Source: an uncultured Gemmatimonadaceae bacterium
GTDB taxonomy: Bacteria > Gemmatimonadota > Gemmatimonadetes > Gemmatimonadales > Gemmatimonadaceae
Reading direction: 5' to 3'
NCBI GenBank assembly: GCA_963817955.1
Contig: CAWFQK010000001.1
Location: forward strand, 416,001-480,000
Length of the DNA: 64,000 nucleotides
Below the pieces are notes generated by a model, which was given only the letters and a program-made list of their open reading frames with translations, was not told the DNA's origin and did no database searches. Within the stretch, counting starts at the first letter, position 1, and each line of letters begins with the position of its first letter. This document shows positions 37,913 to 63,417 of this stretch, in pieces. Both the position numbers and the translations under genes were made by a program.

Positions 37913-39229
37913 ATGACGATGTTGCGTTCCCTGCCCACCCCCTGGAACGTCTACAACCTCACCGGCTCGCCGTACTTTCAGGAAGCGCTCGAGGCTGGCG
38001 AAAACACACCACGACCGCTGAGTCTGTTCGTCGGTCGGCAGACCGAACTGCATCGCCTCCAAGCGAACATCCGAAGCGCCGGCGGCAACTCAACCCGCCA
38101 GGCGGTGGCGGGGGCGCCTGGCGTCGGCAAGACCACGCTCGTGAAAGAGCTGAAGGCGCTCGCGCTGGCCGATGGGTACCTCACGACGGATGCCCTCGTG
38201 CCCATCCTGGGTAACGACACGGTCAGTACGGTATTCGGCCGAGTGTTGGGTGCTCTTTATGACACGGTCGTCGCCAATCGGCCTCATGCGATCGACGATC
38301 CAACCCTCCGCGACGCGCAGGTGCTGGTCCGCGCGACACGCCTCGGGACCGGAGGTGGTGGCGTCTCGGTCATGGGGGTGGGGGCGACGCTCACGACAGG
38401 GTCAACGGTGCTCCATCCCGGCGACATGATGATCGACGGCCCCCGGGTGGTGCGTGACCTGTCGCGGTTCGTCCAAGCGAGCGACGCGCGCGGCGTGCTG
38501 TTGCACCTGAACAACATGGAGAATCTCACGGAGTCGGATGCCCAACATGCCGCGAATCTGCTGCGCGACTTGCGTGATCCGCTCTTGCTACAGAATGGCC
38601 TTCATTTCGTGCTGGTCGGGACGACGGATGCTGTGACGACGGTCGTCAATACGCACCAGCAGGTGCGGAACACGGTCAGCATTCTTCGGCTTGAACCGCT
38701 GGACATCGCCGAGGTGCATGCGATGCTTGCGGCGCGCTACGCGTACCTGCAGTTGAACCCGCACGATCCCATTTCCGCGCCTGTTGAACCCGAGGCCGTG
38801 AACCTCCTCCACGAGCTTTTCCGTGGCGACCTGCGCGGATTGCTCAAAGCTCTCGAGGACGGCGTCGAACCACTACTCGGCCTACTGGACCGGAACGGCG
38901 GCACGGTGGTTCGCCCAGTGACCGGTGCCGAAATTCGCGGAACGTTGCAGGCGCGGTACACTGCCGAGCTTTCTCAGCACGTCGAGCCGGTACGAGTCAC
39001 GCAACTCACCGCGTGGGGCACGCAGGCACCGGGGGCGGGGGTGGGGGCGGGGGCGGGGGGCGTACAAACTCAAAAATCCCTTCGCGGGCTCTGGAAGCTC
39101 TCGCAGCCGGGCGTGTCGAACGCGGTGGCCGCGCTCGTCCGGCAGGGGTACGTGGTGCTACTCCCGCGGTCCGGAGCGGAGCCAATTCAGTACGTGCTCT
39201 CCGGGGTCAGTCGACTCATCTTCGGATGA
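37913..39229 (+). CDS. P-loop ATPase with C-terminal wHTH (ATPase-1)
   Basis: FVGR, Walker A GAPGVGKTT, atypical Walker B LHLNNMEN, GDLR sensor, C-terminal HTH. Confidence 0.85.
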   Translation: MTMLRSLPTPWNVYNLTGSPYFQEALEAGENTPRPLSLFVGRQTELHRLQANIRSAGGNSTRQAVAGAPGVGKTTLVKELKALALADGYLTTDALVPILGNDTVSTVFGRVLGALYDTVVANRPHAIDDPTLRDAQVLVRATRLGTGGGGVSVMGVGATLTTGSTVLHPGDMMIDGPRVVRDLSRFVQASDARGVLLHLNNMENLTESDAQHAANLLRDLRDPLLLQNGLHFVLVGTTDAVTTVVNTHQQVRNTVSILRLEPLDIAEVHAMLAARYAYLQLNPHDPISAPVEPEAVNLLHELFRGDLRGLLKALEDGVEPLLGLLDRNGGTVVRPVTGAEIRGTLQARYTAELSQHVEPVRVTQLTAWGTQAPGAGVGAGAGGVQTQKSLRGLWKLSQPGVSNAVAALVRQGYVVLLPRSGAEPIQYVLSGVSRLIFG

Positions 39230-39308
39230 CGGGGGGGGGGGGGGGGAGGGGGGGGGGGAGGCGGGACGGCGGGACGGCGGGACGGCGGGACGGCGGGTGA
39301 GGTAATCC

Positions 39309-39640
39309 GTTGTGAGTTGTCAGTTGTCAGTTGTGAGTATACGGGTCATGCGCACCAGGGCGCCTGGCTTCGCGGGCCACTATCGCCGGTCGGCGAGGTT
39401 CGGGTGTCCAGTTGTGAGTTGTGAGTTGTGAGTTTTTAACAACGCGCAACGCATAACTCACAACTGGCAACTCGAAACTCGCCGACCGGTGGGCCGACCG
39501 CTACGGAGCAGCCAGCGACATCCAGCCGGTCAACACCCGGAGCTCAATCCACGGCCTCACGATCGGCTGCGCCGGTGGGCCGACCGCTACGGAGCAGCCA
39601 GCGACATCCAGCCGGTCAACACCCGGAGTCCAATCCCCGC
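39309..39640 (+). repeat. R element copy 6 (full) with tandemly duplicated right module (39571-39640)
   Basis: CCGGTGGGCCGACC..CAACACCCGGAG occurs twice; preceded by poly-G and GGGACGGC octamers. Confidence 0.95.
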
Positions 39641-39772
39641 CTCGCGATTCCCCGCCCCCCAATCGGCCAACACTCGGAGCGCCCAATCCGGCTTGCGCTG
39701 GTCGGCGATAGGCATATAATTTCACAATAGATCGATAAGATCGGGTAAGATACCTCAAATCGCTGACTCAGC

Positions 39773-40993
39773 ATGAATCCGCTAAACAACCCGTTCTCAC
39801 CCGGAGCCGGCGCCCCTCCGCCCGAGCTCGCTGGTCGTGACGAAATCGTCAACGCCGCGACGATCGCTCTTCACCGTATCCGCGCAGGACGACCGGAAAA
39901 GAGTCAGCTGCTCCTCGGCCTTCGCGGCGTCGGAAAGACGGTCTTGTTGAACCGGATCGCCACCATCGCTGAAGAGACGGGCCATCTCGTCGTCCAATTC
40001 GAAGCACCGGAGGGGCAGAAGCTGGCCGAGTATCTCGCGCCGGCACTGAAAAGCGTCCTCCTCCGACTCAGCCGCGTCGAACGGGCGAAAGACTATGCCG
40101 CCCGCGCCATGGGCGCGCTGAGAGGGTTTGCAAGCGTGTTCAAGGTTTCCATCGGCGAGGTCGGGTTCGGCGTCGCCGAGCCGCAAACCGCCGACAGCGG
40201 CAACATCGAGTTTGATCTTCCTGAGTTACTGATCGCGACAGCGCAAGCGGCGAAAGCCGCGGACACAAGCGTCGCCGTCTTCGTCGATGAGGTCCAATAC
40301 CTGTCGGAGGAGGACCTCCGTGCACTGATCGTTGCGCTGCATCGCGTCGCGCAAAAGGGCTTACCTCTCGTCCTCTTTGGCGCCGGGCTTCCGCAGGTAG
40401 CCGCTCTCGCCGGAGAGGCGAAGTCTTACGCCGAACGGCTGTTCGACTATCCGGAAATCGGCCCTCTCGTTCCTTCGGCGGCAGAGCGTGCGGTACGGGA
40501 ACCCGTCCGCTCTGAAGGGGCGGACATTGACGCTGGAGCACTGCACGGGATCGTCGAGGTGACCCAAGGCTATCCGTACTTTCTGCAGGAATGGGGTAAG
40601 CACGCCTGGAACACTGCGCCACGATCGCCGATCACCGCGGCGGATGTCGAAATGGCCAGCAGGTCTGCGACCGACGCCTTGGACAAGAATTTCTTCCGAG
40701 TCCGGTTCGATAGGCTCACTCCGCGCGAACAGGATTATCTGCGGGCGATGGCGGACCTCGGCCCAGGCCCCCACCGGTCCGGGGCGATCGCTGAGAAGCT
40801 CGGGGCGGCGGTGGAGAACCTCGGTCCGCTGCGGAGCGGCCTCATAAAAAGGGGTATGATTTGGAGCCCGTCACACGGCAACACCGCCTTTACTGTACCC
40901 ATGTTCGACGCGTTCATGCGACGCGCGATCCCAGTTTGGCAGGCACCAGCCGCGCCCAAGCGCCGGGGGGGGACTGTGACCAGTGGTCAGTGA
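39773..40993 (+). CDS. AAA-family ATP-binding protein with wHTH (ATPase-2)
   Basis: NPFSPGAG..ELAGR, GLRGVGKT, VDEVQ, GAGLP, SYAERLF, GYPYFLQ, FTVPMF. Confidence 0.9.
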   Translation: MNPLNNPFSPGAGAPPPELAGRDEIVNAATIALHRIRAGRPEKSQLLLGLRGVGKTVLLNRIATIAEETGHLVVQFEAPEGQKLAEYLAPALKSVLLRLSRVERAKDYAARAMGALRGFASVFKVSIGEVGFGVAEPQTADSGNIEFDLPELLIATAQAAKAADTSVAVFVDEVQYLSEEDLRALIVALHRVAQKGLPLVLFGAGLPQVAALAGEAKSYAERLFDYPEIGPLVPSAAERAVREPVRSEGADIDAGALHGIVEVTQGYPYFLQEWGKHAWNTAPRSPITAADVEMASRSATDALDKNFFRVRFDRLTPREQDYLRAMADLGPGPHRSGAIAEKLGAAVENLGPLRSGLIKRGMIWSPSHGNTAFTVPMFDAFMRRAIPVWQAPAAPKRRGGTVTSGQ

Positions 40994-41250
40994 CCAGTGG
41001 TGAGTTGTGAGTTGTGAGTTGTGAGTTGTGAGTGTACGGGGCATGCGCACCAGGGCGCCTGGCATGCAGGCCACTATCGCCGGTCGGCGAGGTTCGGGTG
41101 TCCAGTTGTGAGTTGTGAGTTGTGAGTTTTTAACAACGCGCAACGCATAACTCACAACTGGCAACTCGAAACTCGCCGACCGGTGGGCCGACCGCTACGG
41201 AGCAGCCAGCGACATCCAGCCGGTCGATACCCGGAGCTCCAATCCCCGCC
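40976..41250 (+). repeat. R element copy 7 (full)
   Basis: Between convergent ATPase-2 and tsdA-like genes; its leader supplies the ATPase stop codon. Confidence 0.95.
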
Positions 41251-41259: not shown

Positions 41260-42297
41260 TCAGCACCCGCTCTCGGCAATAATTTCACGCCTAGCTGTAC
41301 GGTACGCCGCATCGGGCGGAGCATCCCCTTTCGGCCAATCCAGCTCCTTCCCGACAAAATCAGGCCGTGGCTTCGACACGATAAAAGCCGCCACGTCGAA
41401 CGCCTCGCCGGGGGCGAGCGTGCCCGGCCGGTTGAATGGCATGCTGGCCTGGATGAACGCTGCTGCCGTGCGCACTCGCGCCATGCCTGCGCCAATATTG
41501 AACGATTGCCCTCCCCAGAGCGGCGTCGCGATCGTCGTTCCCTCGCCATTCGCGCCATGGCAGGCCGCACAATTGAGCGCAAATACCGCTCGGCCACGCG
41601 CGGTATCCGGCGGGGTTGCTGGGGCATTTACCTTCAGCGCCTGGGTGCCGTCGTTGCGGACCAGCGGCGAGGGGCGTGAGAGGTAGGCCATGTACGCGAC
41701 CAGGTCGCGCATCTCGCGGCTGGTATCCGGGAGCGCGCGACCGTTCATGCTGCGACGAAGGCAGCCGTTCACACGATCCGCCATCGTCAGAATCTTGCCC
41801 TCACGCGGGCGATACTGCGGAAAGCGCGCGTAGACCCCCAGCCAGGGGATGGCGCCCGTCCGCGTGCCGCCGTCGAGATGACAACTGGAGCAGCGGAGCG
41901 TATTGCCCGTGTAGCCGGGCAAGCTATCGCGCGTTGCGTCGGCAATGGCACGACCCCGAAGAACGGCCGCGCGAACCTGGGGAGCCAGCTCGACGTTACC
42001 GGGAATGGAGAAGGCCGCAGGCGGCTCCACGATCGAGCGCTCCGTCGCGGTAAGCGACTGGTGCTGCACGTAGCGCGTGACGGCGAGCACACTGGCGAGC
42101 GCGGCACCAGCGCCGACCGTCGCCACAATGCGCGGCTTCGCTCGGCGGCCGATACGCTGGCTGATGGCCTGCATGGGCCGAGCGATCATTGGCCCGATCA
42201 GGAAGAGAAGCAGGATCGTGAGCCACGCCAGACCCGCGGCGCAGAGCACGAGGCCGAGCCCAATTGCCAGAATGCCAAGCGGTCCGTGAGTTTCCAT
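41260..42297 (-). CDS. tsdA: Diheme c-type cytochrome, thiosulfate dehydrogenase TsdA-like
   Basis: CSSCH and CAACH, RVNGCLRRSMNG (Cys ligand), PLWG..SFNIGAGMAR; N-terminal TM anchor. Confidence 0.8.
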   Translation of the reverse strand: METHGPLGILAIGLGLVLCAAGLAWLTILLLFLIGPMIARPMQAISQRIGRRAKPRIVATVGAGAALASVLAVTRYVQHQSLTATERSIVEPPAAFSIPGNVELAPQVRAAVLRGRAIADATRDSLPGYTGNTLRCSSCHLDGGTRTGAIPWLGVYARFPQYRPREGKILTMADRVNGCLRRSMNGRALPDTSREMRDLVAYMAYLSRPSPLVRNDGTQALKVNAPATPPDTARGRAVFALNCAACHGANGEGTTIATPLWGGQSFNIGAGMARVRTAAAFIQASMPFNRPGTLAPGEAFDVAAFIVSKPRPDFVGKELDWPKGDAPPDAAYRTARREIIAESGC

Positions 42298-43319: not shown

Positions 43320-43480
43320 TCGGTGTCGCGGCTAAACCCCGCGGCGCCGTAGAGGATGCACGCCTGCCCGCCCATGAGCAGGTAGCGAACGCCATGTTCG
43401 CGCATGGAAGAAAGGACTATGCGAGCCGTGCCTACAGCACCGTTCTCCAGCGCACTCGACCTGACTGTTCGAGCCATCCC
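43320..43480 (-). pseudogene. Deleted remnant of the small-protein/nucleotidyltransferase pair found intact at 57879-58914
   Basis: Matches 58571-58675 joined to 58840-58899 through TGCGAG microhomology. Confidence 0.85.
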
Positions 43481-43546
43481 GGTGGACCCAGTCTCAGCGG
43501 TTCGCGCCGTTACCGCCGCCAGCACTGAACCTCGGACAAAGCAGTA

Positions 43547-44983
43547 CTAGTCAATCAGATCTGCGCTGGCGAACCCGAGGACGTCACCGGATGCGATTGC
43601 GGCTGCCACGCCATGCGACCATGCATCGTCGCCGGAGAAGACGGCGAAGTGCACGCGATGCACTGGTTGACCGGCCGGCAGATCGGTGAGGAGCAGTTTT
43701 GCGCGAGCGCGAAGGGTGTCGAGGTCGGGATCATCGACCCTACCCCATTTGCATTCGCCGACGAGGATGTCTCCGTCCAGTCCGACGGCGACGATGTCGA
43801 TTTCGTTCCGTGAGTCCGCGTCCCACCAGGCCCCGACCCTGCTGGGCTTGAATGGGAGTTTGGTGGTGCGGCCTACCCAAGCGCGGCAGATGTCCTCGAA
43901 GGGGGCACCCATGTAGTCGTCGAGCCGCGGTGCAATGCGCTGCTGCCACAGTTGCTCTGGCGCAACGAGGCTGATCTCGCCGGTGGCGATGAGGGGGGCA
44001 ACGAACCGGTGCCAGAAGGCAACGTACGGATCGTTAATTCGATACAGCGTCCGTTTGGAGTGCTGCGGGCTCGTCTCTGTGATGGGGACCATGCGGGCCA
44101 CGACCTGCATCTCTTCGAGCCAACGCATTGGACGAGAGAGGGAACCGCTGCCCTTCCCCAGCCTGCTCGTGATCTTGCTCCACGTGCGCTCTCCGTTCGC
44201 GATGGCCTGGATGATCGAATAATGGATGTCCGCGTCCCCCCCCCCGCGAAAGGCGTCAAGCATGTGCTGCGCCTCGTCGAACAGGCGTCCGGCCGGGGTT
44301 AGCATCTGTCGCATCACGTTCGCTGCGAGCGCCCGCTCGGGGTCGAGGAGGGCGAGGTGCCCCGGCAAGCCGCCGAAGATGCTGAAGATGATGAGGCGTT
44401 CCCGAGCGGTGTACCCCGGGACGAAGGCGCCGACGTATTCGTGGGTGAATGGCGGGAAGATGAGTCGTCCGGTTCGGCGACCGTAGAGCGGCTGATCCGC
44501 CTGCTCCAAACGCTGCATTGCCGAGATGTGCGACCCGTTGAGGACGAGCTTGAGACGGGTCTCGGGCCAGTGGTGGTCCCACACCGATTGAATGATCGAG
44601 GGTAGTGCTGGCGCGGCCGCCGCCAGATATGGGAACTCGTCGAGGATGAGGAGGAGCGGGACACCGGCAGCTCGGTCTGTGAGGTATTGGAAGAGGCTCT
44701 CCCAATCCGGGAGCGCCACCCCACGAAGTAGCGCCGCATCCTCAAAATGGCTCCCAATAATACGGCTGAGCGCCGCAAGTTGCTCAGTCTCCGTGCGGTT
44801 GGTGGCCTGGTAATAGATTCCGCCCACGGACTTCGCGAATCGAGTCAGGACCCAGCTCTTGCCTGCGCGCCGACGTCCAACGCCAAAGATGAGATCGGGG
44901 GAAGATCGGTTCCAGATCTCGTTGAGTTCCTGCCACTGGGCATCTCGGTCGATGATGTCGGCAGGCTTTATTGGTCGAGGCAT
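43547..44983 (-). CDS. ATPase_2/DUF234-type ATP-binding protein with C-terminal PD-(D/E)XK-like domain (ATPase-3)
   Basis: GRRRAGKS, LDEFPYL, LNGS, PLYGRRT, GGLP, EIDIVA..GECKW; upstream 2x TTGTA-N4-TACAA (45012-45040). Confidence 0.9.
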   Translation of the reverse strand: MPRPIKPADIIDRDAQWQELNEIWNRSSPDLIFGVGRRRAGKSWVLTRFAKSVGGIYYQATNRTETEQLAALSRIIGSHFEDAALLRGVALPDWESLFQYLTDRAAGVPLLLILDEFPYLAAAAPALPSIIQSVWDHHWPETRLKLVLNGSHISAMQRLEQADQPLYGRRTGRLIFPPFTHEYVGAFVPGYTARERLIIFSIFGGLPGHLALLDPERALAANVMRQMLTPAGRLFDEAQHMLDAFRGGGDADIHYSIIQAIANGERTWSKITSRLGKGSGSLSRPMRWLEEMQVVARMVPITETSPQHSKRTLYRINDPYVAFWHRFVAPLIATGEISLVAPEQLWQQRIAPRLDDYMGAPFEDICRAWVGRTTKLPFKPSRVGAWWDADSRNEIDIVAVGLDGDILVGECKWGRVDDPDLDTLRARAKLLLTDLPAGQPVHRVHFAVFSGDDAWSHGVAAAIASGDVLGFASADLID

Positions 44984-46308: not shown

Positions 46309-46641
46309 ATGAAAGCAGCCACGCACGACCGTCTTCCTCTCGCTGTCCGCCGTTCGCTCACGAAGTTGGGGCGTGACGTGGCGACCGCCCGGAAGAAACG
46401 CCGGTTGACGATGGCCATGATGGCCGAGCGGGTCGGGATCACCAAGGTCACGTACATCCGTGTCGAACGGGGAGACCCGACCGTGGGCATGGGGATCTAT
46501 GCCATGGTCCTTTTCGTCCTGGGACTGGGGGCACCGTTCGCCGATCTAGCCGATCCTGGTTCGGATGACCAGGCGCTCCTGCTTGAAGCCGAGCGCTTGC
46601 CGACCCGAGTGCGCACCAAGCAGGAGCCGACTGCACAATGA
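46309..46641 (+). CDS. XRE-family HTH antitoxin
   Basis: ARKKRRLT..MAERVGI..VERGDPTV..LFVLGL. Confidence 0.88.
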   Translation: MKAATHDRLPLAVRRSLTKLGRDVATARKKRRLTMAMMAERVGITKVTYIRVERGDPTVGMGIYAMVLFVLGLGAPFADLADPGSDDQALLLEAERLPTRVRTKQEPTAQ

Positions 46642-47942
46642 AGCGCACGATCAACGTATACCTCGGTGAAGCGCCCAAGCACATCGGCGTCCTCCGGTAC
46701 AACCAGGAGGGCGCGCGCGAGAGCGCGAGCTTTGAGTATGAAACGGCGTGGCTCATCGACCCACAGCGCTTCGCGATTGATCCGTTGCTCCCACTGCAAG
46801 CGGGCGCGCAGTATCGCAAGCGGTCGGAGGGAGGCTCGATCTTTCACTCCGCGATTGCGGACACGGAGCCCGACGGGTGGGGGAAGACGGTCATCCGGCG
46901 TGACCATGCGAAGCGTCGCGCTGCCGCCAAGGCGGCTGGTCAGCCGCTTCCCCCGATTGAAGGCGCACTCGACTTCCTGCTCGGAGTAGACGACCCGAGC
47001 CGCATTGGCGCGCTCCGCTTTCAAGATGAGTGGGGAGTGTTCCAGCGCGCGATAGCACCTGGGCAGCGGTCGGTCCCACCACAAGTTGAATTGCAGCATC
47101 TCATTGCCGCCACCAGCGCGGTCGAGCTCCACCAGGAGACGGCGGAAGACTTGGCCTATCTCCGCGGTCGTGGCACATCACTGGGCGGACTCCGACCCAA
47201 GGCGACGATCGTCGATCACGCGGGGCGACTGGCCATCGGCAAGTTCCCGAGTGTGCGCGACGAGCGGGCCGTGACCAAAGGCGAGGTGCTGGCCTTACAT
47301 CTGGCGACCCAAGCGGGGGTGGACGCGGCGCATGCGAGCTTGGTCATGAGCGAGGACGTACCGGTGGCCGTCGTGCGACGCTTTGATCGGGACGAGCATG
47401 GCAACCGTTTTATGTATGTGTCGGCAGCAACACTGCTTGGCGTCGAAGCCCAAGGCGCCGACCAATACACCTATACGGACATTGTGGACACCATCCGGCA
47501 GCATGGAGCGAAGGCGCAGCATGACATCGACGAACTATGGCGCCGCATAGCGTTCTCCATCCTCATCAACAACGGGGACGATCATCTGCACAATCACGGC
47601 TTCCTGCACGCGGAGTCGGGCAAGTGGCGTTTGTCGCCGGCGTTCGACGTAAACCCGTTTCCGGACAGGGCCCGCGAGCTGAAGACGTGGATTACGGCGG
47701 ACACAGGTCCGGCTGCGACGATTGACGCCCTTCTCTCGGCGACGAAGTACTTCGCGATTCAGCCGTCGCGCGCCCAGGACATCCTGAAGGCGGTCGAGAG
47801 GGCTGTGTCGCAATGGCAAAGCGTTGGCCGAGCACTGGGGATGTCAGAGATCGACCTCGCGCAGTTCGCCGATGCGTTTGAGCACCCGCAACGTGAGGCC
47901 GCCCGTAAGGCGTTTGCGATGCGCCCTGCTCGCAGCATCTAA
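46638..47942 (+). CDS. hipA: HipA-family kinase toxin
   Basis: PDGWG, SLGGLRPKA, KFP, RFDR, NGDDHLHNHGF, LSPAFDVNP. Confidence 0.92.
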   Translation: MKRTINVYLGEAPKHIGVLRYNQEGARESASFEYETAWLIDPQRFAIDPLLPLQAGAQYRKRSEGGSIFHSAIADTEPDGWGKTVIRRDHAKRRAAAKAAGQPLPPIEGALDFLLGVDDPSRIGALRFQDEWGVFQRAIAPGQRSVPPQVELQHLIAATSAVELHQETAEDLAYLRGRGTSLGGLRPKATIVDHAGRLAIGKFPSVRDERAVTKGEVLALHLATQAGVDAAHASLVMSEDVPVAVVRRFDRDEHGNRFMYVSAATLLGVEAQGADQYTYTDIVDTIRQHGAKAQHDIDELWRRIAFSILINNGDDHLHNHGFLHAESGKWRLSPAFDVNPFPDRARELKTWITADTGPAATIDALLSATKYFAIQPSRAQDILKAVERAVSQWQSVGRALGMSEIDLAQFADAFEHPQREAARKAFAMRPARSI

Positions 47943-51821: not shown

Positions 51822-51853
51822 GCGAGTTACGGAACAATTACGACCACCCTACG

Positions 51854-53155: not shown

Positions 53156-53179
53156 CCTGCGCCAGTCGGCGATCGAGCC

Positions 53180-53469: not shown

Positions 53470-54756
53470 ATGACCGCGCCCACCACAGCCCTACCATCGC
53501 TCCCAAACCTGTGGAACGTCTTCAATCTCCGCGAGACGCCTTACTTCCAGAACACCCTTGGAAGTTCTGCGCAAGGCTATCCGCTGAGCTTGTTTGTCGG
53601 TCGGGAGCAAGAGACGCAGACGCTACTCGCCGGCATAGGCGGTACACGCTCTTCGCGCGCGGCGATTTGCGGTGCGGCTGGGGTTGGGAAGACAACCCTC
53701 GTCCAACAAATCAAGGCGGCTGCCATCGCCGCCGGCTACTTCGCCACGGACGAACTGGTACCCGTGTACGAGGACGATGACATTGAGCGCCTGTTGGGAC
53801 GGATGCTCAGCGTACTCTACGACACGATCCTCGCAGCGCGCCCGCACACCGCCGATCACGCGGTTATGCGCGACGCGCAACAACTCGTCAAGGTCGCCCG
53901 CTTGACCGCTGGCGGCGCGAACGTGTCCGTTCTCGGAATCGGCGTCGGCGGAAGCCGCAGTACCAACCTCGTGACCCCGCCGGGGGCGATGCTTCTCGAC
54001 GGCCCGCGCATCATGCGCGCGATGTTGGCGCTCGTACAAGAAGCCGAGTCGCAGGGCGTGGTGATGCACCTGAACAACCTGGAGAACCTCTCCGATAAAG
54101 GCGCCACACGAGCGGCGGACCTTCTCCGGTCGCTGCGAGATACAGTCCTCCTACTCGAGGGGCTGCACATTCTCTTGGTCGGCACCGTTGACGCAGTCTT
54201 CCGAGCTGTGAACACGCACGCGCAAGTTCGCTCGATCTTTCCCGTTCCGCTGGTGTTGCACGCAATGCCAATCGACGACGTGCAGCGCTTGCTGGCGGCA
54301 CGTTACGCGTACCTGGCCATTGACGATCGTACGCCCGTTCCGCCCGCCGCCCCCGAGGCTGTTGGGCAACTCTATCCGCTATTCCGCGGTGACCTGCGTT
54401 CCCTCTTGAGTGCTCTCGACGAGGGAACTCGGCTCCTCATTGGGACGGTACCGGCCGGAACCTCCATTCCGTTCGACCTCCTACACCCCGCTCTTCGCGA
54501 ACGATACGAAGCGGTGCTCAACGAGCGACTCAGCGAGATCCGCCGTCGCTATCTCGAGGCGTGGGCCGCAGTAGGTGCTGAGACGGCGCAGACGCAATTG
54601 GAGCTACAGGGCCTCTGGGCGCTGACACAAAGCAAGGTCTCGAAGACGCTCGCGGAGCTTGAAACGCAGGGATACGTGATTGGCCTTCCGCGCGACGGGC
54701 GGAGTCCGAAACAGTACGTATTGAGCGGCGTGAGCCGCCTGATCTTCGCGGCGTGA
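53470..54756 (+). CDS. P-loop ATPase with wHTH (diverged paralog of ATPase-1)
   Basis: WNVFNL..PYFQ, GAAGVGKTT, MHLNNLEN, FRGDLR, identical C-terminal YVLSGVSRLIF. Confidence 0.87.
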   Translation: MTAPTTALPSLPNLWNVFNLRETPYFQNTLGSSAQGYPLSLFVGREQETQTLLAGIGGTRSSRAAICGAAGVGKTTLVQQIKAAAIAAGYFATDELVPVYEDDDIERLLGRMLSVLYDTILAARPHTADHAVMRDAQQLVKVARLTAGGANVSVLGIGVGGSRSTNLVTPPGAMLLDGPRIMRAMLALVQEAESQGVVMHLNNLENLSDKGATRAADLLRSLRDTVLLLEGLHILLVGTVDAVFRAVNTHAQVRSIFPVPLVLHAMPIDDVQRLLAARYAYLAIDDRTPVPPAAPEAVGQLYPLFRGDLRSLLSALDEGTRLLIGTVPAGTSIPFDLLHPALRERYEAVLNERLSEIRRRYLEAWAAVGAETAQTQLELQGLWALTQSKVSKTLAELETQGYVIGLPRDGRSPKQYVLSGVSRLIFAA

Positions 54757-54887
54757 GCCGCCTGATCTTCGCATGGTGGCCGGGCGTGCCCCCAGGCTGA
54801 TGGGACGTGCTCGTTGGCGCTACTCGCGAAGCCAAAGCCCGAGCCGAGCCGAGCCGAGCCGAGCCGAGCCGAGCCGAGCCGCGGGTG

Positions 54888-55135
54888 GTTGTGATCAGTT
54901 TCCAGTGGTGAGTTGTGAGTATACGGGGCATGCGCACCAGGGTGCCTGGCGCGGAGACCACTATCGCCGGTCGGCGAGGTTGCGGGTGTCCAGTTGTGCG
55001 TTGTGAGTGGTGAGTTTTTGAAACGCGCAACGCATAACTCACCACTGGAAACTCGAACCTCGCCGACCGGTGGGCCGACCGGTACGGAGCAGCCAGCGAC
55101 ATCCAGCCAGTCAACACCCGGAGCCCAATCCCCGC
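54888..55135 (+). repeat. R element copy 9 (full), preceded by GAGCC pentamers (54841-54880)
   Basis: All three modules present. Confidence 0.94.
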
Positions 55136-55235
55136 CTGCGCCAGTCCGCTCTAAAGGTCGAACCTGGAACCCTTTGACCGATCGTGGGCGAGTGGTACAT
55201 TCCCTCTAAGGGAATATTCCACTGAGGATCTGCGA

Positions 55236-55857: not shown

Positions 55858-55884
55858 GTAGTGCGCCTCAGCCGCGCCGCGGGG

Positions 55885-56054
55885 TGACTGTGGTCAGTGA
55901 CCAGTTGTCAGTTGTCAGTTGTCAGTGGTCAGTGGTCAGTGGTCAGTATACGGGTCATGGGCACCAGGGCGCCTGGCTCGCAGGCCACTATCGCCGGTCG
56001 GCGAGGTTCGGGTGTCCAGTTGTGAGTTGTGAGCTGTGAGTTTCTAAAAACGCG
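55885..56054 (+). repeat. R element copy 10, left half (ends at hairpin apex)
   Basis: Leader, left module and left arm, ending GAGTTTCTAAAAACGCG. Confidence 0.94.
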
Positions 56055-56056
56055 GT

Positions 56057-56224
56057 ACAAACCGGTCTGATAGGTGAGCAACAAACCGGTCTGATAGGTG
56101 AGCAACAAACCGGTCTGATAGGTGAGCAACAAACCGGGCTGATAGGTGAGCAACAAACCGGGCTGATAGGTGAGCAACAAACCGGGCTGATAGGTGAGCA
56201 AACAGACCGGGCTGATAGGTGAGC
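56057..56224. repeat. 24-bp tandem array ACAAACCGG(T/G)CTGATAGGTGAGCA x7
   Basis: Three T-type units, three G-type units, one degenerate unit; no spacers. Confidence 0.96.
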
Positions 56225-56299
56225 TTGGGTGAGACAGCCTGGACCGGCCGGAAACGGTACGATGCTGCGACCTAGACTGCGGCCGCGCAGCTTTTGCAC

Positions 56300-56677
56300 A
56301 TGCAGGATTTTCGCCGGCTCAAAGTATGGGACAAGGCTGTCGCTCTGGCGCTCGGAGTCCGAAGGGCTACGACGCGGTTTCCAAAGCAGGGCTATTCGGA
56401 ACTGAAAGCGCAGCTGGTCTCGGCTGCCGAATCGGTGGGCAACAACATCGTCGAGGGTTGCGGCGCGAGCACGCAGAAAGAATTCGCGCGCTTTCTGGAA
56501 ATGTCCGTGAAGTCCGCGATGGAGCTCGAGGGCGAACTGGAGCTGGCGTACCGGTACGACGTGCTGCAGGAACGCGACCGGCGCGCCCTTGGCGCAATGA
56601 CAGTCGAGACGCGCCGAATGCTCTGCGGTCTGCGGAACAAGGTGCTGAGCACCACCGGTGAGACCCCACCCCGTTAA
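56300..56677 (+). CDS. Four-helix-bundle protein (23S rRNA IVS protein / Avd-like family)
   Basis: MQDFRRLKVWDKA..FP..L..QL..AA.SV..NIVEG.G..T.KEF.RFL..S..S..E signature. Confidence 0.92.
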   Translation: MQDFRRLKVWDKAVALALGVRRATTRFPKQGYSELKAQLVSAAESVGNNIVEGCGASTQKEFARFLEMSVKSAMELEGELELAYRYDVLQERDRRALGAMTVETRRMLCGLRNKVLSTTGETPPR

Positions 56678-56790
56678 CACTCACAACGCACAACTCACAA
56701 CTGGAAACTCGAACCTCGCCGACCGGTGGGCCGCCCGCTACGGAGCAGCCAGCGACATCCAGCCGGCCAACACCCGGAGCCCAATCCACG
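56678..56790 (+). repeat. R element copy 10, right half
   Basis: Starts immediately after the four-helix-bundle stop codon: ACTCACAACGCACAACTCACAACTGG..CTCGCCGACCGG plus right module. Confidence 0.95.
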
Positions 56791-56820
56791 CCTTCGCCGG
56801 TCCGCGATCACTCAGCCGGA

Positions 56821-57843
56821 CTACGGCAATTTCGTGCCTACCGTGCGGTACGCCGCATCGGGCGGAGCATCCCCTTTCGGCCAATCGAGTTCCTTCCCGA
56901 CAAAATCCGGACGTGGCTTCGACACGATATATGCCGCCACGTCGAACGCTTCGCCGGGCGCGAGTGTGCCCGGTCGGTTGAATGGCATGCTGGCCTGGAT
57001 GAACGCCGCCGCGGTGCGCAGTCGAGCCATGCCTGCGCCGACATTGAACGAGGAAGCCCCCCATAGCGGCGTTGCGATCGTCGTCCCCTCCCCATTCGCG
57101 CCGTGGCAGGCTGCACAATTGAGCGCAAACACTGCTCGGCCCCGCGCGGTATCAGGCGGGCTTGCCGGGGCATTCACCTTCAGCGCCTGGGTGCCGTCGT
57201 TGCGGACTTGCGCCGAGGGGCGTGAGAGGTACGCCATGTAGGCGACCAGGTCGCGCATCTCGCGGCTGTTCTCCGGGAGCGCGCGACCGTTCATGCTGCG
57301 ACGAAGGCAGCCGTTCACGCGATCGGCCATCGTCAAAATCTTGCCCTCGCGGGCGCGATACTGCGGAAAGCGCGCATAGACTCCCAGCCAGGGGATCGCG
57401 CCATTTCGCATGCCGCCGTCGAGATGACAACTCGAGCAGCGGAGCACGTTGCCCGTGTAGCCGGGCAAACTGTCTCGCGTTGCGTCGGCAATGGCGCGAC
57501 CCCGGAGGACGGCCGCGCGAACCTGGGGGGTCAACTCGACGTTATTTGGGATCGAGAAGGCCGTGGGAGACTCCACAATCGAGGGCTCCGTCGCGACCAA
57601 CGACTCGTGCTGTACGAAGCGCGTGACGGCGAGCACACTGGCGAGCGCGGCGCCCGCGCCGACGGTTGCCAATATGCGCCGCTTCGTTCGGCGGCCGATA
57701 CGCTGGCTGATGGCCTGCACGGGCCGGGCGATCATGGGCCCGATCAGGAAGAGAAGCACGAACGTGAGCCACGCCAGACCCGCGATGCATAGCACGAGGC
57801 CGAGCGCAATCGCCAGAATGCCAAGCGGTCCGTGAGTTTCCAT
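56821..57843 (-). CDS. tsdA: TsdA-like diheme cytochrome c, second copy
   Basis: Same motifs as 41260-42297, with many scattered substitutions. Confidence 0.8.
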   Translation of the reverse strand: METHGPLGILAIALGLVLCIAGLAWLTFVLLFLIGPMIARPVQAISQRIGRRTKRRILATVGAGAALASVLAVTRFVQHESLVATEPSIVESPTAFSIPNNVELTPQVRAAVLRGRAIADATRDSLPGYTGNVLRCSSCHLDGGMRNGAIPWLGVYARFPQYRAREGKILTMADRVNGCLRRSMNGRALPENSREMRDLVAYMAYLSRPSAQVRNDGTQALKVNAPASPPDTARGRAVFALNCAACHGANGEGTTIATPLWGASSFNVGAGMARLRTAAAFIQASMPFNRPGTLAPGEAFDVAAYIVSKPRPDFVGKELDWPKGDAPPDAAYRTVGTKLP

Positions 57844-57878: not shown

Positions 57879-58688
57879 TCACCTGCGAGGATCGGTGCTT
57901 TGCCGTTCGGTGTGTTCGCGGCGGATGACGTGGCGGAGGCTTTCGAGCTCCTGGATGCGGGGACGCCAGTATGCCTCGTCCGCGGCGCGCTCTCGCGTCT
58001 CCTCGTCCGCGAGGGCGCTTCCGATCTCCTGTTCCGAACCTCCCTGCGCGGCGATTGCGGTCGCCTGGCGGGCGGCCGACAGTTCGGGAAGGAGCGCGGC
58101 GATCTCGGAGGGTGCGGCCTGAGCGCGCGCGACGCATTCGGCAAGAAGCGCGGGCGTGCGTAGCTCGCGCAGCCAGAAGCGAAACCGCTCAGGCGTCGGC
58201 TCGAGCTCCGGATCCAAGTAGTGGCGTTCGACGAGCCGTCGGACCATGGGCCAATCCTTGTCGCGGCGTGTCTTCTTGCAACGGACCAAATCCTCGAGGC
58301 CGAGCACTTCGAGCTCGCCAAGGTCGCCGAGGGCGAACGTGCTCCGGCGGGCCCAGCATTCCGCAAACGAGGGGACGTTCCGCATCGACGCCATCACGTC
58401 GATCCGCATGCCCGCCGCCGCTGATCCTGGGCCGCATTCAAAGTGGACCGCGTGTCCGCGTGCCAGGTACTCCGGCTCGAAGGGGGGAACGGCGGTGACG
58501 CGCGCCGCGAGGGCCGAAAGTGCTGTTTGCAGTCGCCGCAGGTTATCAGGCTCCGCGAGGATGGCGATGTCGGTGTCGCGGCTAAACTCCGCGGCGCCGT
58601 AGAGGATGCACGCCTGCCCGCCCATGAGCAGGTAGCGAACGCCATGTTCGCGCATGGAAGAAAGGACTCTGCGAGTCGGGCTCGACAT
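57879..58688 (-). CDS. Nucleotidyltransferase-fold protein
   Basis: YLLMGGQAC..SRDTDI, RIDVM, LVRCKKTRRDKDW. Confidence 0.8.
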   Translation of the reverse strand: MSSPTRRVLSSMREHGVRYLLMGGQACILYGAAEFSRDTDIAILAEPDNLRRLQTALSALAARVTAVPPFEPEYLARGHAVHFECGPGSAAAGMRIDVMASMRNVPSFAECWARRSTFALGDLGELEVLGLEDLVRCKKTRRDKDWPMVRRLVERHYLDPELEPTPERFRFWLRELRTPALLAECVARAQAAPSEIAALLPELSAARQATAIAAQGGSEQEIGSALADEETRERAADEAYWRPRIQELESLRHVIRREHTERQSTDPRR

Positions 58689-59005: not shown

Positions 59006-60124
59006 TTACTGATGACTGAAGGCGGAGGAACTGATTGCGTAGCTCGTACTGCGACCGCCTGCGGGACCTTTGCTGAGGATGTTCAATTCTACCAGGGCGA
59101 CGATATCCCGGATGGCCGTGTCCTGAGAGCACTTTCCGATCTTGGCCCACTTCGATGAGGTGAGCTTACCCTCAAAGCCATCGAGCAGCAGGTTGAGCAC
59201 CTTGATCTGGCGCCCGTTGAGTTGGGCGGCAGCGTGCCGCTGCCAGAAGTGAGCCTTGGAGAGCACGGCAGAAAGGGTGGCCTCGGCGCCGTCGATCGCG
59301 CGGTGCAAGCATCCGAGAAACCACTCCATCCAGCGCGTCACATCGACGGTGTCTTTTTGAGTCCGCTCGAGGGCGGTGTAATAGGCGCGTCGTTCGGCCT
59401 GGATCTGGGCCGACATGCTGTAGTAGCGCTGGGGGCAGTTCTCCGAGCGCGCCAGGGCGAGGTCGGCGATCGCGCGCGCAATGCGACCGTTGCCATCGTC
59501 AAACGGGTGGATCGTGACGAACCACAGGTGTGCGAGTGCGGCTTTCAGGACGGGGTCGATCGCCGGCGACGCGTTGAACCAATCGAGGAAGCGCCCCATT
59601 TCGGCGTCGAGGCCCTCTGCTGGTGGAGCTGAATAGTGGACCCGCTCGTGACCGATGGGTCCGGAGACGACCTGCATTGGCCCTCCGGAGTCATCACGCC
59701 ACGCCCCAACACGGATTTTGCTCATGCCGGTGCGGCCGGTTGGGAAGAGTGCGGCGTGCCACCCAAAGAGCCTGTCCTCCGTCAGCGGATCCGCGAAGTT
59801 ACGAGTGGCGTCGAGCATCATTTCCACGACGCCTTCGACGTGACGATCAGCCGGAGTGAGCGCGCCAACATCAATCCCAAGGCGGCGGGCGAGGGATGAT
59901 CGCACCTGAACGGCGTCCAGCTTCTCGCCCTCGATTTCGCTCGTTTTCAGAACATCCTGCGTAAGAGTTCGGAGGAAGGCCTCCTCACGCAGCGCGAACC
60001 CGAGCGACTCCATGCGGCCGAGTAGCCGTCCCTGCTCGTGGTGCAAGTCGGCCAAGGGTTGAGCCAATCGCAGCTCGTCCCAGCGAAGCTTCGGCCACTC
60101 CGGCTGTTCCCATATGTAGCGCAT
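59006..60124 (-). CDS. Fic family protein, second near-identical copy
   Basis: 59032-60212 matches 48032-49212 including the promoter, with few substitutions. Confidence 0.93.
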   Translation of the reverse strand: MRYIWEQPEWPKLRWDELRLAQPLADLHHEQGRLLGRMESLGFALREEAFLRTLTQDVLKTSEIEGEKLDAVQVRSSLARRLGIDVGALTPADRHVEGVVEMMLDATRNFADPLTEDRLFGWHAALFPTGRTGMSKIRVGAWRDDSGGPMQVVSGPIGHERVHYSAPPAEGLDAEMGRFLDWFNASPAIDPVLKAALAHLWFVTIHPFDDGNGRIARAIADLALARSENCPQRYYSMSAQIQAERRAYYTALERTQKDTVDVTRWMEWFLGCLHRAIDGAEATLSAVLSKAHFWQRHAAAQLNGRQIKVLNLLLDGFEGKLTSSKWAKIGKCSQDTAIRDIVALVELNILSKGPAGGRSTSYAISSSAFSHQ

Positions 60125-60232
60125 AATCTCCGTACCTCCTGAGGAGATTATAGTCGCCAATCACCGCACGTCCAAGTCAATCGCCGCATTCTATGCGGAT
60201 ATTAGCGTGCTCTCGGCTATTTTGCCGTTCCT

Positions 60233-60415
60233 GTGGTCGCAAAGCTGACCGCTTCCGTACGTGCGCTCGAGGCCCTCTGGAAGACCTCGTACACCACCGC
60301 GAATGAGACTGTCAAGCGGCTAGTCGAGGCAGGGTATCTGACGACCCGTCCTCCCACGGGTCGCCCAGCGATGCGGTACGGCGCGACCGGCGCAACGCGT
60401 CTGGCGTTGTGGTGA
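60233..60415 (+). pseudogene. C-terminal wHTH fragment
   Basis: SYTTANETVKRLVEAGYL..TGRP; begins just after the Fic duplication breakpoint. Confidence 0.45.
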
Positions 60416-60643
60416 GGTGTCAGTGGTGAGGTGTGAGTGGTGAGTTGTGAGTATACAGGCCCTGTGCACCAGGGTGCCTGGCTCGCAGGCTACTATCGCC
60501 GGTCGGCGAGGTTCGGGTGTCCAGTTGTGCGTTGTGAGTGGTGCGTTGTAAAAACGCGCAACGCATAACTCATCACTGGAAACTCGAACCTCGCCGACCG
60601 GTGGGCCGACCGGTACGGAGCAGCCAGCGACATCCAGCCGGTC
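60410..60643 (+). repeat. R element copy 11 (full), joined to a REP unit at 60644-60678
   Basis: Ends CCAGCCGGTC-CACAGAGATTCTTCGCTTCGCTCAGAATGACAGG. Confidence 0.95.
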
Positions 60644-60664
60644 CACAGAGATTCTTCGCTTCGC

Positions 60665-62119
60665 TCAGAATGACAGGCCTTTGCAGTGAGTCAGGTCTGC
60701 GCTGGTGAACCCAAGGACGTCACCCGAGGCGATTGCGGCTGCCACGCCATGCGACCATGCATCGTTGCCGGAGAAGAGGGCGAAGTGCACGCGGTGCACT
60801 GGTTGACCGGCCGGCAGATCGGTGAGGAGCAGTTTTGCGCGCGCGCGAAGCGTGTCGAGGTCGGGATCATCGACCCTGCCCCATTTGCATTCGCCGACGA
60901 GGATGTCTCCGTCCAGTCCGACGGCGACGATGTCGATTTCGTTCCGTGAGTCCGCGTCCCACCAGGCCCCGACCCTGCTGGGCTTGAATGGGAGTTTGGT
61001 GGTGCGGCCTACCCAAGCGCGGCAGATGTCCTCGAAGGGGGCACCCATGTAGTCGTCGAGTCGCGGTGCAATACGCTGCTGCCACAGTTGCTCTGGCGCA
61101 ACGAGGCTGATCTCGCCGGTGGCGATGAGGGGGGCAACGAACCGGTGCCAGAAGGCAACGTACGGATCGTTAATTCGATACAGCGTGCGTTTGGAGTGCT
61201 GCGGGCTCGTCTCTGTGATGGGGACCATGCGGGCCACGACCTGCATCTCTTCGAGCCAACGCATTGGACGAGAGAGGGAACCGCTGCCCTTCCCCAGCCT
61301 GCTCGTGATCTTGCTCCACGTGCGCTCTCCGTTCGCGATGGCCTGGATGATCGAATAATGGATGTCCGCGTCCCCACCCCCGCGAAAGGCGTCAAGCATG
61401 TGCTGCGCCTCGTCGAACAGGCGTCCGGCCGGGGTGAGCATCTGTCGCATCACGTTCGCTGCGAGCCCCCGCTCGGGGTCGAGGAGGGCGAGGTGCCCCG
61501 GCAAGCCGCCGAAGATGCTGAAGGTGATGAGGCGTTCCCGAGCGGTGTACCCCGGGACGAAGGCGCCGACGTATTCGTGGGTGAATGGCGGGAAGATGAG
61601 CCGTCCGGTTCGGCGACCGTACAGCGGCTGATCCGCCTGCTCCAAACGCTGCATTGCCGAGATGTGCGACCCGTTGAGGACTAGCTTGAGGCGGGTCTCG
61701 GGCCAGTGGTGGTCCCACTCCGATTGAATGATCGAGGGTAGTGATGGCGCGGCCGCTGCCAGGTATGGGAACTCGTCGAGGATGAGGAGGAGCGGGGCAC
61801 CGGCAGCTCGGTCTGTGAGGTATTGGAAGAGGCTCTCCCAATCCGGAAGCGCCACCCCACGAAGTAGCGCCGCATCATCAAAATGGCTCCCAATAATCCG
61901 GCTGAGGGCCGCGAGCTGCTCAGTCTCCGTGCGGTTGGTGGCCTGGTAATAGATTCCGCCCACGGACTTCGCGAATCGAGTCAGGACCCAGCTCTTGCCC
62001 GCGCGCCGACGTCCAACGCCGAAGATGAGATCGGGGGCAGCTCGGTTCCAGATCTCGTTGAGTTCCTGCCACTGGGCATCTCGGTCGATGATGTCAGCAG
62101 GCTTTATTGGTCGAGGCAT
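60665..62119 (-). CDS. ATPase-3, second copy
   Basis: Near-identical to 43547-44983; stop codon supplied by the REP unit. Confidence 0.9.
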   Translation of the reverse strand: MPRPIKPADIIDRDAQWQELNEIWNRAAPDLIFGVGRRRAGKSWVLTRFAKSVGGIYYQATNRTETEQLAALSRIIGSHFDDAALLRGVALPDWESLFQYLTDRAAGAPLLLILDEFPYLAAAAPSLPSIIQSEWDHHWPETRLKLVLNGSHISAMQRLEQADQPLYGRRTGRLIFPPFTHEYVGAFVPGYTARERLITFSIFGGLPGHLALLDPERGLAANVMRQMLTPAGRLFDEAQHMLDAFRGGGDADIHYSIIQAIANGERTWSKITSRLGKGSGSLSRPMRWLEEMQVVARMVPITETSPQHSKRTLYRINDPYVAFWHRFVAPLIATGEISLVAPEQLWQQRIAPRLDDYMGAPFEDICRAWVGRTTKLPFKPSRVGAWWDADSRNEIDIVAVGLDGDILVGECKWGRVDDPDLDTLRARAKLLLTDLPAGQPVHRVHFALFSGNDAWSHGVAAAIASGDVLGFTSADLTHCKGLSF

Positions 62120-62202
62120 GGTTGCATCCGATGCGTCATCGCTATTGTTGCAGCACTACAACTTGTATGCTTACAACATAGATGCTGCTCCGGCGCGAGA
62201 CA

Positions 62203-63216
62203 ATCGCTGAAGAGAAGGGCCATCTCGTCGTCCAACTCGAAGCACCAGAGGGGCAGAAGCTGGCGGAGTATCTCGCGCCGGCACTGAAAAGCGTCCTCCT
62301 CCGACTCAGCCGCGTCGAACAGGCGAAAGACTACGCCACCCGCGCCATGGGCGCGCTGAGAGGCTTTGCAAGCGTGTTCAAGGTTTCAATCGGCGAGGTC
62401 GGGTTCGGCGTCGCCGAGCCGCCAACCGCCGACAGCGGCAACATCGAGTTTGATCTTCCCGAGTTACTCATCGCGACAGCGCAAGCGGCGAAAGCCGCGG
62501 ACACAAGCGTCGCCGTCTTCGTCGATGAGGTCCAATACCTGTCGGAGGAAGACCTCCGTGCACTGATCGTTGCGCTGCATCGCGTCGCGCAAAAGGGCTT
62601 ACCTCTCGTCCTCTTTGGCGCCGGGCTTCCGCAGGTAGCCGCTCTTGCCGGAGAGGCGAAGTCTTACGCCGAACGGCTGTTCGACTATCCGGAAGTCGGC
62701 CCTCTCGATCCTTCGGCGGCAGAGCGTGCGGTACGGGAACCCGTCCGCTCTGAAGGGGCGGACATTGACGCTGGAGCACTGCACGAGATCGTCGAGGTAA
62801 CCCAAGGCTATCCGTACTTCCTGCAGGAATGGGGTAAGCATGCCTGGAACACTGCGCCACGATCTCCAATCACCGCGGAGGATGTCGAAATGGCCAGCAG
62901 GTCTGCGACCGACGCATTGGACAAGAACTTCTTCCGAGTCCGGTTCGACAGGCTCACTCCGCGCGAACAGGATTATCTGCGGGCGATGGCGGACCTCGGC
63001 CCAGGACCGCACCGGTCCGGGGCGATCGCTGAGAAGCTCGGGGCGGCCGTGGAGAACCTCGGTCCGCTGCGGAGCGGCCTCATAAAAAAGGGTATGATTT
63101 GGAGCCCGTCGCACGGCAATACGGCCTTTACTGTACCCATGTTCGACGCGTTCATGCGACGCGCGATCCCGGTTTGGCAGGCACCAGCCGCACCCAAGCG
63201 CCGGGGGGGACTGTGA
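62203..63216 (+). pseudogene. 5'-truncated second copy of ATPase-2 (no Walker A)
   Basis: Match to 39965 begins at ATCGCTGAAGAG, fused to the ATPase-3 promoter region. Confidence 0.88.
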
Positions 63217-63417
63217 CCAGTGGTGCGTTGTCAGTTGTCAGTTGTCAGTTGTGAGTTGTGAGTTGTGAGTGTACGGGGCATGCGCACCAGGGCGCCTGGC
63301 ATGCAGGCCACTATCGCCGGTCGGCGAGGTTCGGGTGTCCAGTTGTGAGTTGTGAGTTATGAGTTTCTAAAAACGCATAACTCACAAATGGCAACTCGAA
63401 ACTCGCCGACCGGTGGG
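63212..63417 (+). repeat. R element copy 12 (right module missing)
   Basis: Leader, left module and full hairpin; stops after CCGGTGGG. Confidence 0.93.

Follow-up and report, generated by a model that had tools for sequence, protein, structure and literature searches.

Same-strand gene duplicates in permuted order and a modular intergenic repeat in a toxin-antitoxin and defence-type island of a Gemmatimonadaceae genome

Duplicated genes of the island

We analyzed a 64,000-nucleotide stretch of DNA from an uncultured Gemmatimonadaceae bacterium (GCA_963817955.1, contig CAWFQK010000001.1; G000:C1:416001-480000), referred to below as the window. Within it, several genes occur twice on the same strand but in a different order, interspersed with copies of a ~280-bp repeat that we call R. 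The genome comprises 4.53 Mb in nine contigs (64% G+C; completeness 94%, contamination 4.3%), and contig C1, which carries the window, is 559 kb long; C3 and C4 are other contigs, and L007 is the stretch just downstream of the window (L007:1035 is window-equivalent 65035). We mapped duplicates by self-BLASTN of the window and then extended the mapping into the flanking genome. Gene names are from Pfam, defence labels are from PADLOC, and synonymous divergence (dS) was calculated by the Nei-Gojobori method (NG86).

From ~14 kb to past the end of the window, toxin-antitoxin and defence-type genes are densely packed. They include HepT/MNT, PIN, HEPN-NTase, ParE-like, MazE, and AbiEii genes; three hipBA pairs; a Doc-like Fic gene, two SoFic-type Fic genes, and one longer Fic gene; and ATPase genes of which three are AAA_16 and two DUF234 (PADLOC PDC-S27). 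Judged by its genes, the region appears to be an accessory island in which toxin-antitoxin and defence-type genes turn over fast.

The duplicated genes form two blocks. Upstream of the first lies ATPase-1 (37913..39229, + strand; AAA_16 plus a MarR-like C terminus). Block 1 begins with an intact ATPase-2 (39773..40993, +; AAA_16, 406 aa, Walker A GLRGVGKT), followed on the opposite strand by tsdA, predicted to encode a TsdA-like dihaem cytochrome c (41260..42297, -; SoxA-TsdA_cyt-c plus Cytochrom_C, with an NCBIfam SoxA match below cut-off). Next is a 5′ remnant of a nucleotidyltransferase (NTase) gene (43320..43481, -), whose body is replaced by other sequence and which, compared to the second copy, carries a 158-bp deletion between short direct repeats. 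ATPase-3 (43547..44983, -; ATPase_2 plus DUF234; PADLOC PDC-S27) and Fic (48024..49160, -; DUF4172 plus Fic; PADLOC SoFic, 148.7 bits) complete the block, with a single-copy hipB/hipA pair between them (46309..47942, +; Pfam). Beyond Fic are a second pair, hipB2/hipA2 (50142..51823, +), and an old paralog of ATPase-1 (53260..54756, +; AAA_16). As hipA2 (50480-51818) is read in two frames, it probably contains a frameshift near 50851; an intact copy (447 aa) lies past the window at L007:5370-6713, in a hipBA segment at ~69037-70715.

Block 2 contains a second tsdA (56821..57843, -; Pfam), a full-length NTase gene of 269 aa (57879..58688, -; weak NTP_transf_5 match), a second Fic (59006..60160, -; duplicated segment 59032-60212), a second ATPase-3 (60665..62119, -; assigned from Pfam and dS), and a 5′-truncated ATPase-2 (62182..63216, +; AAA_16) that begins at residue ~64 of the first copy, without the Walker A sequence. 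The order is thus ATPase-2, tsdA, NTase, ATPase-3, Fic in block 1 and tsdA, NTase, Fic, ATPase-3, ATPase-2 in block 2, and between the blocks lie ~11 kb of single-copy genes.

Five segments are present twice in these blocks, each pair on the same strand and 88-98.6% identical. Fic is the best conserved (48032-49212 and 59032-60212; 98.6% over 1181 bp), followed by ATPase-3 (43549-45068 and 60685-62204; 96.8% over 1520 bp), two NTase pieces (43320-43431 and 58570-58681, 96.4%; 43420-43481 and 58839-58900, 95.2%), ATPase-2 (39962-41192 and 62200-63422; 95.4% over 1231 bp), and tsdA (41130-42310 and 56674-57856; 88.2% over 1189 bp). A sixth same-strand pair, hipBA (50142-51823 and 69037-70715; 93.6%), lies partly past the window and beyond the range of the first-pass annotation of this DNA. 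The duplicated Fic segment includes 52 bp upstream of the gene, and the ATPase-3 segment 85 bp; either stretch may hold a promoter.

Synonymous divergence differs widely between the pairs, with dS values of 0.041 for Fic, 0.081 for ATPase-3, 0.11 for HipB2, 0.12 for ATPase-2, 0.21 for HipA2, and 0.34 for tsdA; these values form at least three age classes. The ATPase-1 paralogs are saturated (dS 1.9; 49.6% amino-acid identity). For all duplicate pairs, dN/dS is near 0.2. The first-pass annotation had described the duplicates as unequally diverged by eye, with strand kept and order permuted, and had argued that one tandem duplication cannot produce this arrangement. The self-BLASTN pairs and NG86 values bear out the description, and from the mapped block orders we accept the argument.

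Two further sets of relatives lie outside the blocks. A paralog of the tsdA product, which as a TsdA/SoxA-like dihaem cytochrome c is here duplicated among toxin-antitoxin and defence genes, is found at C1:304948-305682 (48% identity). A third, distant paralog set occupies C3:44071-56953, with ATPase-3-like (27-30% amino-acid identity), ATPase-1-like (53%), and NTase-like (61%) products.

The repeat R and the edges of the duplicated segments

R begins on its left with a heptamer array of variable length, continues through a conserved core into a 104-nt imperfect hairpin, and ends in a right module that is also conserved; both hairpin arms are themselves heptamer arrays. In self-BLASTN, every full copy gave inverted self-matches of ~104 bp, and this internal repeat was the only inverted match, with none between the two ends of R. 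Terminal inverted repeats, together with target-site duplications, are the marks of a MITE. Folded as DNA, the hairpin at 39380-39495 (116 nt) reached -47.5 kcal/mol (z -11.6), and 0 of 200 shuffled sequences folded as well.

As the first-pass annotation had noted, R lies downstream of each copy of ATPase-2 and tsdA and of both ATPase-1 paralogs. All the copies described here are on the + strand. R_e (39285..39648) is full length with an extra copy of the right end at 39572-39648, R_f (40983..41250) separates the convergent ATPase-2 and tsdA genes, R_g is followed by an ~80-bp remnant of the tsdA 3′ end (52883..53248 together), and R_h spans 54869..55149. The next copy (55874..56805) is split into a left half (55874-56054) and a right half (56673-56805), being interrupted at the hairpin loop by ~618 bp that hold a four-helix-bundle '23S rRNA IVP' gene (56294-56677; TIGR02436). 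R_k (60409..60678) ends 7 bp before the homology of the second ATPase-3 copy begins. R_l (63198..63422) has the left part and hairpin, and from ~position 214 of 281 onward a different repeat module takes the place of its right part; a similar module was seen near 67.2 kb. The insert in the split copy (56055-56672, ~620 bp) has a 94%-identical counterpart at C4:1553034-1553622, with inverted R right modules around it.

Genome-wide, we found 45 left-module and 105 right-module matches of at least 60 bp, which merged into 108 loci. Modules are arranged left-right, right-left, right-left-right, or right only, and other heptamer arrays or end modules also occur. The region ranking second in density (10 per 64 kb; C4:1.545-1.585 Mb) is occupied mostly by housekeeping genes, including those for a class-I Glu/Gln tRNA synthetase, Tex, an acyl-CoA dehydrogenase, and an aldehyde dehydrogenase. 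In a FastTree phylogeny of 27 copies, built without support values, the one sister pair was R_f and R_l, which lie beside the two ATPase-2 copies; the copies beside the old ATPase-1 paralogs were not each other's closest relatives. R therefore seems to have been co-duplicated only where it lay inside a duplicated segment. Full-length R was absent from the genomes of 30 relatives (18 of the same genus, 12 of the same order), three of which had matches of 24-43 bases that we read as parts of heptamer arrays. As a scan of the whole window at Rfam gathering thresholds returned no family, R matches no curated RNA, and a literature search for repeats in Gemmatimonas turned up nothing on this phylum among the papers listed.

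REP (repetitive extragenic palindromic) sequences and BIMEs (bacterial interspersed mosaic elements) have an associated transposase, RAYT (REP-associated tyrosine transposase). The genome, at 94% completeness, contains no match to the RAYT profile Y1_Tnp (PF01797). Like the REP/BIME-type repeats of Enterobacteria and Pseudomonas (compare Delihas 2011, PMC3184786), R is dispersed, intergenic, and species-specific, forms an imperfect palindrome, combines its modules in varying ways, often lies between convergent genes, and can serve as homology for rearrangements. R differs in size: the E. coli REP unit is given as 38 bp in the part of Slack et al. (2006, PMC1428787) consulted, whereas R is ~280 bp with a 104-nt hairpin made of heptamer arrays. 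Since R is much longer and no RAYT gene was found, R is REP/BIME-like in behaviour but is not a member of that class. We think it probable that R offers homology to host recombination, with RecA-type exchange between copies, and that no dedicated cassette recombinase uses it as a site. Long heptamer-based mosaic repeats of this kind are to be expected by annotation pipelines and repeat-aware assemblers in Gemmatimonadota.

To relate R to the duplicates, we compared its positions to the ends of the six duplicated segments. In two of the 12 edge pairs, R contains the edge in each block, and a single copy, R_f, accounts for both: here the ATPase-2 segment ends at 41192 and the tsdA segment at 41130. 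One pair has R on one side, at the 3′ side of ATPase-3 in block 2, 7 bp from R_k. The remaining nine have no R: both ends of Fic, NTase, and hipBA, the start side of tsdA, and the two edges that meet in block 2, left for ATPase-2 and right for ATPase-3. Homology stops sharply, outside any R, at the two ends of Fic and on the start side of tsdA. Edges that do fall inside R occur at three positions, the hairpin loop, ~position 214, and the right end. Since R covers ~8% of the 25.5-kb range (sum of coordinates), its association with breakpoints, counted per independent event, is not demonstrably above chance, a judgment made from coverage with no statistic behind it. The suggestion that R is a point of recombination thus stands for the ATPase-2/tsdA boundary and the second ATPase-3 copy and fails at the other nine edge pairs; the first-pass annotation had itself named breakpoints free of R as the result that would speak against its reading, and this is largely what we found.

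Several other repeats occur in this genome. Two elements of ~2.5 kb, ~86% alike (C4:765246-767767 and C4:1119855-1122314), are bounded by inverted R and contain internal tandem repeats and no convincing gene. A second repeat family (~300-360 bp) forms an inverted pair at L007:1035-1337 and L007:3367-3668 (window-equivalent 65035-65337 and 67367-67668) that encloses ~2 kb of small open reading frames (ORFs) and Fic debris, and further copies are found on C2 and C4, including one at 7 kb from an integron integrase gene. A module of ~35 bp (TTCGCTCAGGATGACAGG) is present in well over 100 copies genome-wide (for example, 60640-60690 and 4651-4684) and frequently caps other repeats as well as R. 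Intergenic DNA is rich in heptamer and 17-mer arrays of several kinds.

Duplication, decay, and competing histories

In block 2, the right edge of the ATPase-3 segment meets the left edge of the ATPase-2 segment at 62200..62204. Here, sequence from upstream of ATPase-3 (GCGCGAGGCAAT; equivalent to 45068) is fused head to tail to the interior of ATPase-2 (ATCGCTGAAG; equivalent to 39962) to give GCGCGAGACAATCGCTGAAG, with ~4 bases shared. By its sequence, this junction is the end-to-start (y|x) joint expected of a head-to-tail duplication. The marks of tandem-type duplication are found together (an end-to-start joint, the same orientation, and short microhomology), and another remnant of the unit lies downstream.

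That remnant follows the truncated ATPase-2 and R_l after ~4.3 kb of other sequence. It is a third tsdA 3′ stub (~67717-67812), directly adjoined by 33 bp with 94% identity to block-2-specific sequence upstream of NTase (58921-58953). A fourth tsdA 3′ stub is the remnant after R_g (~53171-53248). The third and fourth stubs indicate that copying of the unit took place at least four times and that erosion followed. There is further gene debris in the form of Fic, HipA/HipB, and GNAT stubs. Read with the NTase deletion and the hipA2 frameshift, the stubs point to repeated duplication followed by erosion.

We propose that the scrambled duplicates are probably the product of several ordinary duplication, deletion, and repeat-mediated recombination events of different age. 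An older duplication would have copied the unit R-tsdA-NTase-...-ATPase-3; its left edge lies in a copy of R, where unequal homologous recombination between co-oriented dispersed repeats would be expected to place it. A tandem-type (head-to-tail) duplication of a block-2-type unit, joined at the ~4-base microhomology, may then have placed the truncated ATPase-2 after ATPase-3. Later deletions and insertions, including that of the four-helix-bundle gene in the loop of one R, would have erased most of the extra units and left the tsdA 3′ stubs and other debris. Finally, a recent event may have copied the 1181-bp Fic segment with its sharp, repeat-free ends. A contig end from sequencing run X5 runs past the Fic segment into sequence like the block 1 flank, which hints that relatives carry Fic in the block 1 context and that the block 1 site is the older. 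The order of these events is tentative, and their mechanisms would be RecA-type exchange at R and template switching or illegitimate joining at microhomology. With such a history, the cassette-like order is explained by known processes and no new mechanism is opened.

Amplification of the E. coli lac region offers a parallel. In the portion of Slack et al. (2006, PMC1428787) used here, duplication and amplification junctions mostly carry short microhomologies, and REP elements were present at four junction sequences. The island resembles that system in its same-strand copies, its head-to-tail joint with a few shared bases, the later loss of copies, and the occasional presence of dispersed palindromic repeats at joints. 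Its units are ~5-7 kb (5.1 kb for the block 1 equivalents, 39962-45068; ~6.9 kb with the block 2 Fic and R insert). Unlike a fresh laboratory amplification, the island is an old and partly decayed record (dS 0.04-0.34) of several nested rounds.

Several observations weigh against this history. No single scheme accounts for all of the divergences, and the model supplies no mechanism for the copying of Fic. The tsdA pair (dS 0.34) is flanked by the much less diverged NTase (96% identity), ATPase-3 (0.08), and ATPase-2 (0.12), so an extra event is needed, such as gene conversion or exchange between tsdA copies, of which there were at least four. Mosaic identity is supported only for hipBA (maximum chi-square permutation p<=0.003), as the maximum chi-square signals of ATPase-3 and tsdA are confined to non-coding ends; a test of the longest identical run was likewise significant only for hipBA (p=0.003; ATPase-3, p=0.08). 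Further, the window makes up 1.4% of the genome yet contains 12 of the 108 R loci, the highest density in the genome, and 10 of the 12 are co-oriented. Finally, reads do not confirm the arrangement, as the best of nine sequencing runs matched 12% of sampled words. Gene conversion of ATPase-2, ATPase-3, and Fic, which we also considered, is not shown by either the identical-run or the maximum chi-square test.

The best of the alternatives, which we nevertheless consider unlikely, involves a circular intermediate. After formation of the head-to-tail joint, a unit circle (ATPase-2 tail-R-tsdA-NTase-ATPase-3) would have looped out and re-integrated ~11-15 kb downstream by homologous recombination between the R of the circle and a chromosomal R, using host recombination only, like a translocatable unit. 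This predicts the permuted order tsdA-NTase-ATPase-3|ATPase-2 with R on both flanks. Indeed, block 2 without Fic is an exact circular permutation of block 1, begins in R (55874-56805), and ends in R (63198-63422); within R_f, the two edges share 63 bp (41130-41192), and R_f and R_l are sisters. However, no full hybrid R stands at the right end, a tsdA so much more diverged than its neighbours is not what a single event predicts, and the tsdA stub and block-2-specific sequence past the truncated ATPase-2 fit an in-situ tandem array better.

The density and orientation of R would have another meaning if R were an undescribed, species-specific family of long modular repeats, perhaps spread or homogenised by an enzyme, that serves as a preferred point of breakage or exchange and drives turnover of the island. 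If so, defence and toxin-antitoxin genes would undergo repeat-guided, integrase-free shuffling, and the abundance and common orientation of R here would be the cause of the scrambling and not a coincidence. We regard this role as doubtful.

It is similarly improbable that the two blocks reached the genome in separate horizontal transfers, as related but distinct versions of one module whose divergences reflect their donors and not their ages. Heterogeneous divergences would be accounted for, and the distant paralog set on C3 is compatible with such traffic. ATPase-3 is absent at E<=1e-20 from 30 genomes of the same genus, and a scan of metagenomes for this gene yielded one close locus, L015, where an 84%-identical relative lies in a wholly different, unrelated context. 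(Repeats of ~60 bp at L015 are not attC sites by the covariance model described below and look like insertion sequence [IS] ends.) Against separate transfer, the head-to-tail joint and nested stubs point to at least some copying within one lineage, and both blocks carry the species-specific R, of which the genomes of 30 relatives have no match of comparable length.

We also weighed whether the arrangement is an artefact in which strain variants of one locus were strung together during metagenome-derived assembly. The contamination and incompleteness of this nine-contig genome and the want of read confirmation make this conceivable, as do the ~95%-identical variants of NTase, Fic, and ATPase-3 in soil metagenomes, and no piece bridging the 62204 joint was found among the contigs listed from four sequencing runs. 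Yet the flanks of each copy are unique to it, the blocks are ~11 kb apart with single-copy genes between them, divergence is not uniform (88 to 98.6% identity), and the second ATPase-2 is cut at a precise joint. In addition, a 151-base contig of run X1 (depth 2-3) bridges the left edge of the block 2 Fic segment (58992-59128) without differences; since run X1 may be the source sample, this bridging counts only weakly. Another X1 piece (depth 2-3) fits 62203-62343 with seven differences and stops at the joint, and we read it as block 1 ATPase-2. Several other apparent joints in run contigs proved to be R-to-R or heptamer cross-matches, or block 1 copies on block 2, and were discarded. An assembly artefact is very unlikely.

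An integron elsewhere in the genome and the wider island

The first-pass annotation, having seen no integrase nearby, had proposed that gene-plus-R units are copied or reshuffled like integron cassettes. The observation holds for the whole of contig C1: profile searches for tyrosine and serine recombinases placed none of the genome's seven PF00589 matches and neither of its two PF00239 matches there, and the Y1 profile found nothing.

The genome does encode an integron integrase. The intI gene (374 aa) lies at C4:1373441-1374565, where TIGR02249 gave its one match above cut-off (C4:1373624-1374562; 414.6 bits, cut-off 265), and it heads a complete integron (C4:1373441-1397100; loci L012 and L013) with at least nine full-length and two short attC sites downstream. 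These sites are canonical and, at ~95-110 nt, unlike R. They and intI share one strand, whereas the classical layout is divergent.

Using six of the attC sites, we built a covariance model (model R1) that recovered 12 sites on C4: the six used in training, four more full-length sites, and two short ones. One more attC-like site lies at C4:489522. At E<=10, the model found no attC in the window and none in the next 20 kb downstream; the 20 kb upstream contained one marginal match (E 0.21). BLASTN-short with two attC sites of this genome gave no match in the window. A crude attC pattern combined with a fold filter gave 30 matches genome-wide, mostly background, and was superseded by the covariance model.

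In the part of Cury et al. (2016, PMC4889954) consulted, a cassette is one ORF followed by its site and is excised by recombination between sites, and a CALIN (a cluster of attC sites that lacks an integron integrase) contains two or more attC sites. The window has neither two attC sites nor the adjacent integrase of a complete integron. Nor is it built of single ORFs each followed by a site, as duplicated segments end in R at two of 12 edge pairs, in the same R. Compared to the chromosomal integron arrays and CALINs described there, the island shares co-oriented palindromic repeats, an abundance of toxin-antitoxin genes, and the absence of a nearby integrase with intI elsewhere in the genome. 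It differs in having no attC, in units that are not a single ORF plus site, in genes on both strands, with 1 to 12 kb from R to R, and in breakpoints that are mostly off the repeat. A literature search combining Gemmatimonadetes, integron, and attC gave no relevant paper by title or abstract. The integron of this genome serves as an internal control, and a cassette-looking order can arise without cassette machinery.

Movement of gene-plus-R units as cassettes is not upheld. Dedicated site-specific shuffling, with R as the site of the C4 integrase or of another enzyme encoded elsewhere, could draw on the strong 104-nt imperfect palindrome, on the mostly co-oriented R copies that are densest in this toxin-antitoxin-rich region, and on the presence of an integron integrase, but it is already disfavoured and extremely improbable: the attC searches of the window and its downstream flank were empty, no RYYYAAC/GTTRRRY core was seen by eye in the R hairpin (no pattern search was made), the edges inside R fall at three positions with nine of 12 edge pairs R-free, intervals from one R to the next run to 1 to 12 kb with genes on either strand, R is found genome-wide and between core genes elsewhere, and the R copies beside the old paralogs are not sisters.

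More broadly, the island resembles defence and toxin-antitoxin islands in its clustering of SoFic, PDC-S27-like ATPase, AbiEii, hipBA, HepT/MNT, and PIN genes, as well as in its gene debris and its IS3 element; the TsdA-like cytochrome is an unusual passenger, and a defence role here is predicted from the genes. As a record of birth and decay, it documents a cycle of toxin-antitoxin and defence genes in the little-studied phylum Gemmatimonadota. No tRNA genes that could mark island borders were found within 104 kb. The IS3-family element (29779-31024, -), ~7 kb upstream of the duplicated region, appears intact, with an HTH_Tnp_1 orfA and an rve orfB, and an IS5-like transposase gene lies at L007:11209-12321.

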